The translations under genes were made by a program, and so were the position numbers. 64,000 nt of DNA, taken from NCBI RefSeq assembly GCF_046105845.1, contig NZ_CP151004.1. One strand, 5' to 3'. Origin of the DNA: Escherichia coli (lineage in GTDB: Bacteria; Pseudomonadota; Gammaproteobacteria; Enterobacterales; Enterobacteriaceae). Positions 1-21,064 of this stretch are shown piece by piece (positions within the stretch are counted from its first letter, which is position 1; each line of letters opens with the position of its first letter). A model generated the notes under the pieces. It was given only the letters and a program-made list of their open reading frames with translations. It did no database searches and was not told the DNA's origin.

Positions 1-293
1 AAACTACCAGTTTAAAAAGTCTGGCACAAAAAGCAGTTGATAGCGGAGTAAACGTAGCTCTGGTAACTATGAAAGCAGATTCGACGATCGGTAAATTAGC
101 TCAATCTGTGTTGGTACTACCAGGAAGTGTGAAAGACGATAACAATCGTGTTGCAGGCGCTTTCGCACAACCAATGGGATCGGCTTTTGAGCAGCTCTGC
201 TTTATTACTTATGATGCAATTGTTCTGGAGTTGATGTCTGAACTGGGTGAAAGCAGTGCCACAATGTTTACCCGACACGCTGATCTGGAATGA
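1..293 (+). CDS. 3' part of a gene running in from upstream of the window; C-terminal region resembles SIS-domain (phosphosugar isomerase/binding) proteins
   Basis: Frame of ORF 69..293 is open back to position 1 with no stop; stop at 291-293 followed by a terminator hairpin; product assigned by weak motif resemblance only. Confidence 0.3.
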   Translation, partial: TTSLKSLAQKAVDSGVNVALVTMKADSTIGKLAQSVLVLPGSVKDDNNRVAGAFAQPMGSAFEQLCFITYDAIVLELMSELGESSATMFTRHADLE

Positions 294-320
294 CCAAAGA
301 GTTGGTAATTAGAAAGTAAA

Positions 321-346
321 AAGCCTGCTTGAAAGCAGGCTTTTTT
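321..346. terminator. Rho-independent terminator hairpin (gcctgctt/aagcaggc plus T-run), A/T runs on both sides so possibly bidirectional
   Basis: Inverted repeat and T-run read directly in the sequence between the upstream CDS and the tRNA. Confidence 0.6.
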
Positions 347-351
347 GAATT

Positions 352-427
352 TGGCTCCTCTGACTGGACTCGAACCAGTGACATACGGATTAACAGTCCG
401 CCGTTCTACCGACTGAACTACAGAGGA
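352..427 (-). tRNA. asnV: tRNA-Asn (GUU)
   Basis: Exact reverse complement of the 76-nt E. coli tRNA-Asn sequence including CCA end; position next to nac. Confidence 0.93.
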
Positions 428-752
428 ATCGTGTGAACGGGGCGCATATTAATGGCAGTGCATGGTGATGTCAAAGGGTGAAATGCATTTTTTTGTTTGT
501 TTGCTGTCAATTTCAACAAAGTGGTGAGCTTTCAATCTTATTGGTAATGAACCATCGTGGTGCATACCCTCCTTTTATGGGGCAGGGGAACGCGACAGCT
601 GATAAAAAGAGCCAATGACGAACCTATCATAATCTCTTATTTGACAGTTGGTTAGCTTGTACATCAACGCCAAAATAAAACTGGCAAGCATCTTGCAATC
701 TGGTTGTAAGTAATGGCGGCACTTGGGCCGATTCTTAAAAACCGGAGGCAAC

Positions 753-1670
753 ATGAACTTCAGACGCCTGAAATACTTCGTAAAAATTGTAGATATTGGT
801 AGCCTGACCCAGGCTGCTGAAGTATTGCATATCGCACAACCAGCGCTCAGTCAGCAGGTTGCCACACTGGAAGGTGAGTTAAATCAACAACTTTTGATTC
901 GCACAAAACGGGGCGTTACGCCAACTGACGCCGGAAAAATTCTCTATACCCATGCGCGGGCCATTTTACGTCAGTGTGAGCAGGCCCAACTGGCGGTGCA
1001 TAACGTTGGTCAGGCATTATCGGGGCAAGTCTCGATTGGCTTTGCGCCAGGAACCGCTGCGTCATCCATCACCATGCCCTTATTACAGGCGGTTCGCGCT
1101 GAATTCCCGGAGGTCGTTATCTATCTTCATGAAAATAGCGGTGCAGTACTTAACGAAAAACTGATAAATCATCAACTCGATATGGCGGTGATTTATGAGC
1201 ATTCCCCTGTGGCTGGTGTATCCAGCCAGGCTTTGCTGAAAGAAGATCTTTTCCTGGTAGGAACTCAAGATTGCCCGGGGCAAAGCGTTGATGTTAATGC
1301 TATTGCGCAAATGAACCTCTTTCTCCCCAGTGATTACAGTGCTATTAGACTTCGTGTTGATGAGGCTTTTTCCCTACGGCGACTCACGGCAAAAGTCATT
1401 GGTGAAATTGAGTCTATTGCCACGCTTACCGCAGCGATTGCTAGCGGCATGGGCGTTGCAGTATTACCCGAATCGGCCGCGCGTTCGTTATGTGGCGCAG
1501 TAAATGGTTGGATGTCACGCATTACCACTCCTTCCATGAGTCTCTCTTTGTCATTAAATTTACCCGCCAGAGCGAACTTATCGCCACAGGCACAGGCAGT
1601 GAAAGAGTTGTTAATGTCAGTGATGAGTTCTCCAGTGATGGAAAAAAGGCAGTGGCAATTGGTGAGCTAA
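753..1670 (+). CDS. nac: LysR-family nitrogen assimilation control regulator Nac (305 aa)
   Basis: ORF 723..1670; ATG at 753 preceded by GGAGG; N-terminal [39 protein letters not shown] recognised as Nac. Confidence 0.9.
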   Translation: MNFRRLKYFVKIVDIGSLTQAAEVLHIAQPALSQQVATLEGELNQQLLIRTKRGVTPTDAGKILYTHARAILRQCEQAQLAVHNVGQALSGQVSIGFAPGTAASSITMPLLQAVRAEFPEVVIYLHENSGAVLNEKLINHQLDMAVIYEHSPVAGVSSQALLKEDLFLVGTQDCPGQSVDVNAIAQMNLFLPSDYSAIRLRVDEAFSLRRLTAKVIGEIESIATLTAAIASGMGVAVLPESAARSLCGAVNGWMSRITTPSMSLSLSLNLPARANLSPQAQAVKELLMSVMSSPVMEKRQWQLVS

Positions 1671-1771
1671 GCGTTATATCGGGATGGAATAAGATGCGGG
1701 TTTTTATTATTTGTTATGCCGGGCATTAGACTTTAACAATAACGGGAAATCTGAACTGCCCGGAGTTTACC

Positions 1772-2722
1772 GTGAATTTCCAACAAATAAAGATAATCCG
1801 CGAGGCTGCACGTCAGGATTACAACCTGACAGAGGTTGCGAATATGCTTTTTACCTCACAGTCCGGCGTCAGCCGTCATATTCGGGAACTGGAGGATGAA
1901 CTTGGCATCGAAATATTTGTTCGACGAGGTAAGCGACTGCTGGGCATGACTGAACCGGGCAAAGCATTACTGGTCATTGCAGAACGTATTCTGAATGAAG
2001 CCAGTAATGTTCGTCGGCTTGCAGACCTGTTTACCAACGATACGTCTGGCGTTCTCACTATTGCAACGACGCATACTCAGGCACGTTATAGCTTGCCAGA
2101 GGTCATTAAAGCTTTTCGCGAACTTTTCCCGGAGGTTCGGCTGGAGCTAATCCAGGGTACGCCACAGGAAATTGCGACGTTGTTGCAAAATGGCGAAGCT
2201 GATATTGGTATCGCCAGCGAGCGTTTGAGTAATGACCCGCAGCTCGTCGCCTTCCCGTGGTTTCGTTGGCACCATAGTTTGCTTGTTCCACTCGATCATC
2301 CCTTGACGCAAATTACACCGTTGACGCTGGAATCAATAGCGAAGTGGCCGTTAATTACTTACCGACAGGGGATTACGGGGCGCTCACGTATTGATGACGC
2401 ATTTGTCCGCAAAGGTTTGCTGGTAGATATTGTATTAAGTGCGCAGGATTCTGATGTCATTAAAACCTATGTTGCTCTTGGGTTGGGGATTGGATTAGTT
2501 GCCGAACAATCCAGCGGCGAACAAGAGGAAGAGAATTTAATCCGTCTTGATACGCGGCATCTTTTCGATGCCAATACTGTATGGTTGGGACTGAAGCGAG
2601 GGCAACTTCAACGTAACTATGTCTGGCGCTTTCTGGAACTTTGTAATGCAGGACTGTCAGTTGAGGATATCAAGCGCCAGGTGATGGAGAACAGTGAAGA
2701 GGAAATTGATTATCAGATATAG
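1772..2722 (+). CDS. cbl: LysR-family regulator Cbl (sulfonate-sulfur utilisation), GTG start, 316 aa
   Basis: ORF 1772..2722; protein MNFQQIKIIREAARQDYNLTEVANMLFTSQSGVSRHIRELE recognised as Cbl; follows nac as in E. coli. Confidence 0.9.
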   Translation: MNFQQIKIIREAARQDYNLTEVANMLFTSQSGVSRHIRELEDELGIEIFVRRGKRLLGMTEPGKALLVIAERILNEASNVRRLADLFTNDTSGVLTIATTHTQARYSLPEVIKAFRELFPEVRLELIQGTPQEIATLLQNGEADIGIASERLSNDPQLVAFPWFRWHHSLLVPLDHPLTQITPLTLESIAKWPLITYRQGITGRSRIDDAFVRKGLLVDIVLSAQDSDVIKTYVALGLGIGLVAEQSSGEQEEENLIRLDTRHLFDANTVWLGLKRGQLQRNYVWRFLELCNAGLSVEDIKRQVMENSEEEIDYQI

Positions 2723-2723
2723 C

Positions 2724-2752
2724 AAAAAGCCCGCTATAAAAGCGGGCTTTTC
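2724..2752. terminator. Rho-independent terminator after cbl (gcccgct/agcgggc stem plus T-run)
   Basis: Hairpin read directly after the cbl stop codon. Confidence 0.6.
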
Positions 2753-2759
2753 AGAAATT

Positions 2760-2835
2760 TGGCTCCTCTGACTGGACTCGAACCAGTGACATACGGATTA
2801 ACAGTCCGCCGTTCTACCGACTGAACTACAGAGGA
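2760..2835 (-). tRNA. asnU: tRNA-Asn (GUU)
   Basis: Exact reverse complement of the 76-nt tRNA-Asn; lies between cbl and yeeO. Confidence 0.93.
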
Positions 2836-2995
2836 ATCGCTGTTGAGGCACATCTTAACGGCGAAAAATCTTTTGTCAAACCCGATTTTTAAATTTCCCA
2901 ACTGTTTGCCGTTTCTATCAACAGTTTGTTGCATTTGCAGACAATTTGTTGGCGAAAATCTTTGCAGCTTTGCTGATTCTCCCTCATTATTTGAA

Positions 2996-4483
2996 ATGTG
3001 GTTTCACTTTCTGCAATTAAGGTCGGCTTTGAATATCTCCTCTGCTTTACGCCAGGTTGTTCACGGCACTCGCTGGCACGCTAAACGCAAGAGCTACAAA
3101 GTGTTGTTCTGGCGCGAGATAACCCCGCTTGCTGTTCCTATCTTCATGGAGAACGCCTGTGTCCTGTTGATGGGTGTTCTGAGCACTTTTCTGGTCAGCT
3201 GGCTGGGAAAAGATGCGATGGCCGGCGTGGGATTGGCCGACAGCTTCAATATGGTCATTATGGCTTTTTTTGCAGCTATCGATCTTGGTACCACTGTCGT
3301 TGTGGCATTTAGTCTCGGTAAGCGGGATCGACGACGAGCGAGGGTGGCGACGCGGCAGTCATTGGTGATCATGACGTTGTTTGCCGTACTGTTGGCAACG
3401 CTTATTCATCATTTTGGCGAACAAATTATTGATTTCGTCGCGGGTGATGCCACGACAGAAGTTAAAGCACTGGCGTTGACTTATCTGGAGCTGACGGTAC
3501 TCAGTTATCCAGCAGCTGCCATCACTTTGATTGGTAGTGGGGCACTTCGTGGTGCAGGGAATACGAAAATACCGCTACTGATTAACGGTAGCCTGAATAT
3601 TCTTAATATTATTATTAGCGGCATATTGATTTACGGCCTTTTCTCCTGGCCGGGACTGGGATTTGTCGGGGCTGGGTTGGGTTTAACCATTTCTCGTTAT
3701 ATTGGCGCAGTGGCAATTTTGTGGGTGCTGGCGATTGGTTTTAATCCTGCGCTAAGGATTTCGTTAAAGAGCTATTTTAAACCGCTGAATTTTAGCATTA
3801 TCTGGGAAGTCATGGGGATTGGTATTCCAGCAAGTGTCGAATCAGTATTATTTACCAGTGGTCGGTTATTAACCCAAATGTTCGTTGCCGGGATGGGGAC
3901 CAGTGTTATTGCCGGAAATTTTATCGCGTTTTCAATTGCGGCTCTTATCAACTTACCCGGAAGTGCGCTCGGCTCTGCTTCTACGATCATTACAGGCCGA
4001 AGGTTGGGAGTAGGGCAGATAGCGCAAGCAGAGATTCAGTTGCGGCATGTGTTCTGGCTGTCCACTCTTGGATTAACGGCCATCGCCTGGCTAACGGCTC
4101 CCTTTGCCGGGGTTATGGCATCGTTTTACACCCAGGATCCACAGGTTAAACATGTCGTTGTGATTCTGATTTGGCTAAATGCTTTATTTATGCCTATTTG
4201 GTCTGCCTCATGGGTGCTACCCGCTGGATTTAAGGGTGCTCGCGATGCACGTTACGCCATGTGGGTTTCTATGTTGAGCATGTGGGGTTGCCGGGTTGTA
4301 GTCGGTTATGTGCTGGGAATCATGCTTGGCTGGGGGGTGGTTGGTGTCTGGATGGGAATGTTTGCCGACTGGGCTGTGCGGGCCGTGCTGTTTTACTGGC
4401 GAATGGTTACTGGACGTTGGCTGTGGAAATATCCTCGATCTGAGCCGCAAAAGTGTGAAAAAAAGCCAGTTGTGTCGGAATAA
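2996..4483 (+). CDS. yeeO: MATE-family efflux transporter YeeO (495 aa)
   Basis: ORF 2843..4483 is a multi-pass hydrophobic protein recognised as YeeO; ATG at 2996 chosen because the longer ORF would abut the tRNA and 495 aa matches my recollection of the curated length. Confidence 0.8.
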   Translation: MWFHFLQLRSALNISSALRQVVHGTRWHAKRKSYKVLFWREITPLAVPIFMENACVLLMGVLSTFLVSWLGKDAMAGVGLADSFNMVIMAFFAAIDLGTTVVVAFSLGKRDRRRARVATRQSLVIMTLFAVLLATLIHHFGEQIIDFVAGDATTEVKALALTYLELTVLSYPAAAITLIGSGALRGAGNTKIPLLINGSLNILNIIISGILIYGLFSWPGLGFVGAGLGLTISRYIGAVAILWVLAIGFNPALRISLKSYFKPLNFSIIWEVMGIGIPASVESVLFTSGRLLTQMFVAGMGTSVIAGNFIAFSIAALINLPGSALGSASTIITGRRLGVGQIAQAEIQLRHVFWLSTLGLTAIAWLTAPFAGVMASFYTQDPQVKHVVVILIWLNALFMPIWSASWVLPAGFKGARDARYAMWVSMLSMWGCRVVVGYVLGIMLGWGVVGVWMGMFADWAVRAVLFYWRMVTGRWLWKYPRSEPQKCEKKPVVSE

Positions 4484-4583
4484 ACGACAAAGTGCAGATT
4501 ATTTCAGCAAACGATTTCAAATTTAAAAAACAGGCTTTGACATTGTGGATGGGCATCGCTAATATTCGCCTCGTTCTCACGAT

Positions 4584-4659
4584 TCCTCTGTAGTTCAGTC
4601 GGTAGAACGGCGGACTGTTAATCCGTATGTCACTGGTTCGAGTCCAGTCAGAGGAGCCA
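4584..4659 (+). tRNA. asnW: tRNA-Asn (GUU)
   Basis: Exact match to the 76-nt tRNA-Asn on the + strand; inverted relative to asnU. Confidence 0.93.
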
Positions 4660-4720
4660 AATTTTAGTTTTGAGACATCTCTATAAGTCTCAAAACAGTT
4701 AAAAAATAAAAATTATTTTT

Positions 4721-10982: not shown

Positions 10983-19595
<8,613 letters not shown>

Positions 19596-19907
19596 GCTTA
19601 CCTTCCCTGAACGAGCTAACATAAATGCGCCCTTTCTAGCACAGCGAAAAAATGTAAATCCTGATAGCAATATGATTGAAAATTAATAAATTTTCGTTAA
19701 GCAGTTTTGGGTGTGGGTTGCAAGAGGGGAGACTACTGAATTACTCAAGTTTTGTAATCGAGGGGAAAATGGTGATGGCGTTCATAGCAAAACGCCCTCA
19801 ACCATAAAGGTCGAGGGCGCTTAAGATGTCAAAAACCCGCTATCCGTTAAAAAGCAATGCTCAACTAAGGTCAGTGACATTGCGCTAAAAAGCGAATTTT
19901 TAGAATT

Positions 19908-19983
19908 TGGCTCCTCTGACTGGACTCGAACCAGTGACATACGGATTAACAGTCCGCCGTTCTACCGACTGAACTACAGAGGA
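19908..19983 (-). tRNA. asnT: tRNA-Asn (GUU)
   Basis: Exact reverse complement of the 76-nt tRNA-Asn; about 24 nt of its 5' flank are identical to the asnV 5' flank. Confidence 0.93.
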
Positions 19984-20974: not shown

Positions 20975-21064
20975 GGAGAGATGCCGGAGCGGCTGAACGG
21001 ACCGGTCTCGAAAACCGGAGTAGGGGCAACTCTACCGGGGGTTCAAATCCCCCTCTCTCCGCCA
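20975..21064 (+). tRNA. serU: tRNA-Ser (CGA)
   Basis: 90-nt sequence ggagagatgccggagcggctgaacgg...ctctctccgcca with long variable arm, CGA anticodon and CCA end; divergent from mtfA. Confidence 0.9.

Follow-up and report, generated by a model that had tools for sequence, protein, structure and literature searches.

The hxlB fragment next to asnV in an Escherichia coli genome very probably marks the end of an old, integrase-less cluster for carbohydrate catabolism

Does a gene that differs from its K-12 counterpart, and that lies on the 3' side of a tRNA-Asn gene, mark the edge of a genomic island integrated into that tRNA? A non-K-12 gene beside a tRNA is by itself no evidence of a tRNA-integrated island. 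We addressed the question for one end of a stretch of 64,000 nucleotides from E. coli (contig NZ_CP151004.1), which is called the window here. A preliminary description of the window, made from its sequence, had noted that the gene ending at position 293 did not resemble ldtA (erfK), the neighbour of asnV in K-12, that it had SIS-domain-like character, and that it could be the edge of a strain-specific, tRNA-Asn-associated island lying mostly outside the window. The features that bear on the question are the following.

1-293, plus strand: 3' part of hxlB (6-phospho-3-hexuloisomerase), from its translation and a match to TIGR03127
294-317: spacer containing the right boundary of the accessory segment, placed by alignment with K-12 and by the start points of BLAST matches
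318-346, terminator-like on both strands: bidirectional intrinsic terminator, AAAAAGCCTGCTT-GAAA-GCAGGCTTTTTT, common to hxlB (plus strand) and asnV (minus strand)
352-427, minus strand: tRNA-Asn(GUU), intact, identical to K-12 asnV (ARAGORN)
446-474, minus strand: candidate sigma-70-like promoter upstream of asnV, TTGACA-17-TAATAT, a consensus match only (consensus scan, 10/12 matches)
753-1670: nac ORF
1772-2722: cbl ORF
2760-2835, minus strand: tRNA-Asn(GUU) (ARAGORN)
4584-4659, plus strand: tRNA-Asn(GUU) (ARAGORN)
19908-19983, minus strand: tRNA-Asn(GUU) (ARAGORN)
20975-21064: tRNA-Ser(CGA) (ARAGORN)

The first tRNA of the window was identified as asnV because it is followed by nac, cbl, asnU, yeeO and asnW, as in K-12 (the ORFs of this region also include yeeN). 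Gene order in the window corresponds to the K-12 order asnT ... asnW-yeeO-asnU-cbl-nac-asnV-ldtA-cobT, reverse-complemented, and K-12 matched window positions 301-4684 with 97.9% identity by BLAST. The 3' end of asnV, at position 352, points to the left edge of the window, and the stop codon of hxlB lies 58 nt away, confirming that the gene is located on the 3' side of the tRNA. Collinearity with K-12, and with other genomes that lack the cluster described below, resumes only at about 298-301 (by alignment; BLAST matches start at 298 or 301), so that the gene ending at 293 is distinct from ldtA, as had been suspected. The hairpin at 318-346 folds at -18.3 kcal/mol (z -3.6), and this terminator is conserved both in K-12, where it stands after ldtA, and in the comparable genome A34.

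Two other properties of the window were observed. The asnV gene (315-434) and the asnU gene (2721-2843) lie within copies of a repeat unit of about 120 bp, consisting of the tRNA and a downstream terminator, which are 92.7% identical; the right boundary of the cluster (298-301) is separated from this unit by only about 15 nt. The yeeJ position (10983-19670, minus strand) is occupied by one intact ORF of 2895 codons encoding an Ig-like inverse autotransporter. The ORF at this position is annotated as frameshifted in A34, and long BLAST matches that span the region show a lower identity because of it.

The reading frame of the fragment is open from nucleotide 3 and is closed by a TGA at 291-293, and therefore encodes 96 complete residues plus the stop, and not the 97 residues counted originally. 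The fragment matched the NCBIfam model TIGR03127 (RuMP_HxlB) over model positions 85-178 of 178, with an E value of 3e-26 and a score of 92.3 bits, which is expected since only half a protein is present. The full-length orthologue in A34 scored 209.8 bits against a cut-off of 160, and thus qualifies as an equivalog of the model. Residues 33-133 of this orthologue matched the Pfam SIS domain (PF01380; E 6e-13), and its best relative in the PDB was YckF/HxlB of B. subtilis (1M3S; E 9e-44). The truncated fragment on its own, which holds only about the last third of the domain, gave no significant match to Pfam SIS; the SIS-like character proposed earlier is supported by the TIGR03127 match of the fragment and by PF01380 in the full-length homologue. 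Judged by these matches, it is the 3' end of hxlB, and not that of ldtA, that occupies window 1-293.

In A34, hxlB is the last of 12 genes that fill 9.46 kb (9458 bp) between ldtA and asnV. The first part of this cluster contains a gene for a SorC-type regulator and, on the opposite strand, genes for an RpiB/LacAB-like isomerase and for PTS components IIC (Gat), IIB and IIA. The second part contains genes for a DeoR regulator, PTS components IIA, IIB and IIC (Gat), an Rpe-type 3-epimerase, an SDR oxidoreductase and, finally, HxlB. The same layout was found in ST1193, ATCC 8739 and Z1323HEC0462, and hxlB is the only cluster gene that reaches into the window. The A34 cluster has the components of a Gat-family PTS operon, namely IIC in two copies (PF03611/TIGR00827), IIA (PF00359), regulators and enzymes. 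The GC content of the cluster averages about 0.43, some 9 points lower than the value of about 0.52 in cobUST-ldtA.

The Rpe-like protein scored 232 bits on the Rpe equivalog model (cut-off 212.6) and 36 bits on the HxlA model (cut-off 200). No protein of the cluster reached the model for HxlA (3-hexulose-6-phosphate synthase), and hxlA is therefore not encoded along with hxlB, indicating that the cluster is not a RuMP formaldehyde operon. Matches of the SDR in the PDB and NCBIfam were generic, being FabG-like or glucose-dehydrogenase-like. Although HxlB of the cluster belongs to the same family as HxlB/YckF of the RuMP pathway in B. subtilis (PDB 1M3S, 1VIV), the E. coli cluster differs from the B. 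subtilis system in having no HxlA partner, and in placing hxlB in a PTS/epimerase/SDR operon and not in one for formaldehyde fixation.

Gaps of 15-67 bp separate the genes within IIA2-IIB2-IIC2-rpe-SDR-hxlB in A34, which indicates that the genes from IIA2 to hxlB form a putative operon transcribed towards asnV. This operon would end at the bidirectional terminator at 318-346, which it would have in common with the convergent asnV. The 12-gene form is a composite, since several relatives carry only the seven genes sorC-IIA-IIB-IIC-rpe-SDR-hxlB. Module A comprises the SorC-type regulator, a Gat-family PTS (IIA-IIB-IIC), the Rpe-type 3-epimerase, the SDR and HxlB. Module B comprises the DeoR regulator together with the divergent RpiB/LacAB-like isomerase and the second Gat-type PTS (IIC-IIB-IIA), and sits between the SorC gene and the PTS genes of module A. 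The sgc cluster of K-12 (sgcR, A, Q, C, B, E, X) contains a Gat-family PTS, a DeoR regulator and an Rpe homologue, and the hxlB cluster has this architecture in common with sgc. An SDR or HxlB is not known to be part of sgc.

When window 1-297 was used as a BLAST query, the fragment was detected in 226 of 5426 complete E. coli genomes (about 4%) at 95.3-99.0% nucleotide identity; it was invariably present as a single copy on the chromosome, and was annotated as hxlB. Window 1-700, which spans hxlB, the terminator, asnV and the region upstream of nac, was contiguous in the same way in 142 complete genomes. At least 80% of the 9458-bp cluster was present in 225 of the 5426 genomes, and any part of it in 281. 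K-12 carries 32 bp in place of the cluster, between ldtA and asnV. The best match to the window in the genome collection was 99.0% identical over the fragment and 98.4% identical over 20 kb. That the strain-specific segment would lie mostly outside the window was true of every comparable genome, and for the genome studied here we extrapolate from these that the full cluster is present upstream of the window.

Truncations, by IS1 or otherwise, affect about 20% of the 281 genomes in which some of the cluster was detected, and the truncated clusters that we inspected retain the ldtA-proximal part and lack hxlB. In MB52, ES3 and CP61_Sichuan, IS1A adjoins the point of truncation. A truncated integrase fragment is present between IS1A and asnV in MB52 and CP61_Sichuan, so that the deletion runs from an integrase island into the cluster and has also taken part of that adjacent island. 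Independent deletions of the hxlB-proximal part, marked by IS1A, were seen at three loci (L020, 2758-4662; L021, 4610-5307; L022, 8227-9320). The PLSDB record CP088875.1, described as a 393-kb 'plasmid' (pF17EC0245-1), carries cobS-cobT-ldtA-cluster-nac-cbl-yeeO-yeeN-amn-shiA. We rejected this record as an instance of plasmid carriage in E. coli on the basis of its gene content, which is that of chromosomal DNA; it is probably a mis-assigned replicon.

Hundreds of RefSeq genomes carry PGAP names for the genes of the cluster. In a study from 2017 on O-antigen switching in STEC, they were tabulated between erfK and nac with a GC content of 38-46%; the cluster was present in STEC O156:H25/O182:H25 and missing from O156:H8, and was listed without comment (PMC5359238). 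The window fragment agrees in locus and genes with the erfK(ldtA)-nac cluster of ATCC 8739, ST1193 and STEC O156:H25/O182:H25, and shows no substantive difference from it. The feature is already known as sequence and annotation, and is an ordinary strain-variable segment. Hundreds of complete genomes already include its annotation and at least one paper tabulates it, so that its discovery value is small.

The cluster was 97.2% identical between A34 and ST1193, while the left and right flanks were 97.1% and 98.0% identical, respectively. Across the 12 cluster genes of these two genomes, pS was 0.085 and pN/pS was 0.057 (about 0.06). From its divergence, which is similar to that of the flanks, and from the low pN/pS, we conclude that the cluster is functional and has long been present in the species. 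When one genome of each bacterial species was scanned, no relative of the cluster was found in other Escherichia species. Syntenic modules whose HxlB is 74-83% identical were found in Pseudocitrobacter, Enterobacter, Citrobacter, Klebsiella and Entomohabitans, and also in Providencia, Erwinia, Brenneria, Pantoea and Rahnella; in none of the relatives scanned outside E. coli was the module located beside ldtA, nac or tRNA-Asn. Across the seven-gene module and the Klebsiella plasmid form described next, identity of the proteins to those of E. coli ranged from about 59% (IIA2) to 95% (IIC1).

The seven-gene sorC-PTS(IIABC)-rpe-SDR-hxlB module of Pantoea, Erwinia and Brenneria has the gene order of the E. 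coli cluster, and is also carried by the OVR-A region of P. ananatis (PMC5817063). Plasmid-borne homologues were found in Klebsiella, Enterobacter and Pantoea. Examples are the P. ananatis OVR-A region and the IncFIB/IncHI1B plasmid pK55602_1 of K. pneumoniae, in which a 12/13-gene form follows the E. coli gene order and module B ends in a second hxlB. This second hxlB is shorter, and lies after the IIA gene of the RpiB/PTS module (L031, 3661-4182); both PTS modules may originally have ended in HxlB.

Unlike the E. coli cluster at its ldtA-asnV site, these related modules are located at other loci or on plasmids, which supports horizontal acquisition by a route that was not site-specific. We consider it very probable that window 1-293 is the end of an integrase-less accessory cluster for carbohydrate catabolism that flanks asnV, and that is composite, old and horizontally acquired. 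The low GC content, and the related modules on plasmids and at other loci in other Enterobacterales, are consistent with an acquisition that was both old and horizontal. The cluster would not have arrived by site-specific integration into the tRNA. In E. coli it would be maintained as a presence/absence polymorphism, with homologous recombination of the flanks as the probable means of exchange.

The biological question posed by a cluster that is under purifying selection, and plasmid-borne in other genera, is that of its substrate and pathway. HxlB is otherwise known from formaldehyde assimilation. In the pathway that we propose, a hexitol or ketohexose would be taken up and phosphorylated by the PTS, and then oxidised and/or epimerised by the SDR and the Rpe-like protein, after which HxlB would isomerise an intermediate of the 3-hexulose-6-phosphate type to fructose-6-phosphate. 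Neither HxlA nor a formaldehyde step would be involved. This route to fructose-6-phosphate, which is read from gene content, is put forward tentatively. The substrate and the order of reactions are speculative because the matches of the SDR are generic and because a search of the literature on the function and locus of the cluster returned only incidental listings (PMC5359238, PMC5817063) and no paper that characterises it. The hxlB-ptsG locus of BEN2908 (PMC12928451), which also came up, is a different locus and was rejected as unrelated. That the cluster encodes an uncharacterised PTS-dependent route, starting from a hexitol or rare ketohexose phosphate and representing a non-methylotrophic use of a RuMP enzyme, is a rather unlikely proposal. 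If it were true, carriers (about 4% of E. coli, the pandemic ST1193 clone among them) could gain access to a specific dietary or plant polyol, as could Klebsiella, Enterobacter, Pantoea and Enterococcus plasmids.

In an alternative reading of the locus, hxlB is the outermost cargo gene of a classical island that a tyrosine integrase inserted into the 3' end of asnV. The tRNA-Asn genes, including asnV, are documented integration sites of pks and of the HPI, islands with a P4-type tyrosine integrase at the tRNA and, as their boundary, a repeated copy of the tRNA 3' end (PMC8209727). The hxlB cluster resembles such islands (HPI at asnT; pks at asnW, asnU or asnV) in its proximity to the 3' side of a tRNA-Asn, its low GC content and its patchy distribution among strains, and its variable presence (226-281 of 5426 genomes) and atypical GC content are those of an island. 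However, it differs from them in having neither an integrase nor a tRNA repeat. No integrase, recombinase or transposase was found in the 9.46-kb cluster of A34, ST1193, ATCC 8739 or Z1323HEC0462, and no flanking direct repeats of at least 14 nt were found in A34 from ldtA to asnV. Patterns of 17 and 25 nt from the tRNA 3' end, with up to three mismatches allowed, matched only the four intact tRNAs in A34, and no partial copy was detected near ldtA. On its left the cluster begins where ldtA ends, and the right edge is 51-54 nt past the 3' end of the tRNA, outside the asnV terminator, so that the junction is not internal to the tRNA. The window itself contains no integrase, whether adjacent to a tRNA or elsewhere, and no partial repeat of tRNA-Asn, in line with what had been reported initially.

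The four intact tRNA-Asn genes are the only places in the window where the 16-mer TGGCTCCTCTGACTGG is found, and all four asn attachment sites are therefore empty. As a consequence, the strain is without the HPI at asnT and without pks at asnW, asnU or asnV. The unoccupied sites are at 352-367 (asnV), 2760-2775 (asnU), 4644-4659 (asnW) and 19908-19923 (asnT). Genomes in which asnV is occupied provide the most decisive point. In Z1323HEC0462 and ATCC 8739, the hxlB stop codon is followed by the same terminator, then by the 16-nt repeat TGGCTCCTCTGACTGG (the tRNA 3' end), and only then by cargo; in Z1323HEC0462 the island ends with a tyrosine integrase that adjoins an intact asnV. These islands (about 12 kb in Z1323HEC0462, RHS-bearing in ATCC 8739) are like the hxlB cluster in location, low GC content and variability, but they are inserted between asnV and hxlB, and their repeat lies on the side of hxlB that faces asnV. 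The cluster is thus outside their distal repeat, and forms the chromosomal flank of the attachment site. Our analysis fixes the true attachment site of asnV, used by integrase-type asn islands, at the 3' end of the tRNA (352-367), and this site is vacant here. Considering its boundaries and gene content, we conclude that the cluster is not a mobile island integrated into asnV, and we regard integration of hxlB as island cargo as highly improbable. What survives of the proposed tRNA-Asn-associated island edge is a segment that is strain-variable, low in GC and foreign in composition. Integrase-type integration into the tRNA does not survive: the GC shift expected upstream was indeed seen (about 0.43 in the cluster against 0.52 in the flank), but no integrase was present in the cluster of A34, ST1193, ATCC 8739 or Z1323HEC0462, and no tRNA 3'-end repeat at its ldtA-proximal end in A34.

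The asnV island of Z1323HEC0462 (L024, 12352-24297; 11.9 kb) has a frameshifted integrase and unusual cargo, comprising a LysR regulator, a cysteine hydrolase, hypE- and hypF-like genes, an HAD phosphatase and an MFS transporter.

The junction could also be an artefact of assembly or sampling, or hxlB a functionless, decayed pseudogene remnant, given that the window shows only a truncated gene and that the 'plasmid' record with the cluster, CP088875.1, is a mislabelled chromosome. We give this virtually no credence: 142 independent complete genomes showed the identical junction, the frame is uninterrupted through 96 codons, and the differences of the fragment from hxlB of A34 (five synonymous, one non-synonymous) and of ST1193 (ten and two, respectively) are mostly synonymous. 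The polarity of the polymorphism is a more substantial matter. The cluster, or the haplotype that carries it, could be ancestral in E. coli, and the K-12-type junction, present in about 95% of genomes, a deletion or replacement that has spread. The C-terminal end of LdtA bears on this. In K-12-type genomes the tail is ..MPVQISSGSRQMF, while in genomes with the cluster it is ..MPVNINRNGF. The LdtA tail of E. fergusonii is ..MPVNINRTAF, and its gene shows homology at the DNA level to cluster-type ldtA through the stop codon, which puts the actual left boundary of the cluster immediately after the ldtA stop. As the K-12 tail differs from that of E. fergusonii, the cluster-linked ldtA end would appear to be the older form and the K-12 state the derived one, as this comparison of sequences suggests. 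An ancestral cluster is also consistent with the MPVNI motif being common to Citrobacter and Kluyvera, with the presence of the cluster or a remnant of it in all genomes with the NINR tail, with a divergence of the cluster equal to that of its flanks and with strong purifying selection, and with its occurrence in backgrounds as distant as ATCC 8739 and ST1193.

Against an ancestral cluster are its GC content, about 9 points under that of the flanks, and its absence from all representatives of other Escherichia species. The 32-mer specific to K-12 was absent from both strands of the cluster, and a simple deletion from the cluster haplotype as the source of the K-12 junction is not supported. 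The region downstream of ldtA contains cut microcompartment genes in E. fergusonii and an ABC transporter in Citrobacter; these rearrangements leave no usable outgroup with ldtA beside a tRNA-Asn. The ldtA alleles are, in addition, unusually divergent (89-94%), which suggests introgression. We therefore view ancestry of the cluster in E. coli as a possibility to be taken seriously, though not as the probable one, and favour old horizontal acquisition of the cluster.

The C-terminus of E. coli LdtA is thus dimorphic (QISSGSRQMF or NINRNGF), and the two forms are perfectly linked to the absence and presence of the cluster, respectively; the tails were located at L001 10839-10861, L002 4392-4425 and L023 10900-10927. 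Divergent ldtA alleles from metagenomes (L026-L028) were found to be those of E. coli, of either haplotype. These metagenomic E. coli alleles differ by at most 11%, and have an ABC-F gene as their upstream neighbour instead of cobT.
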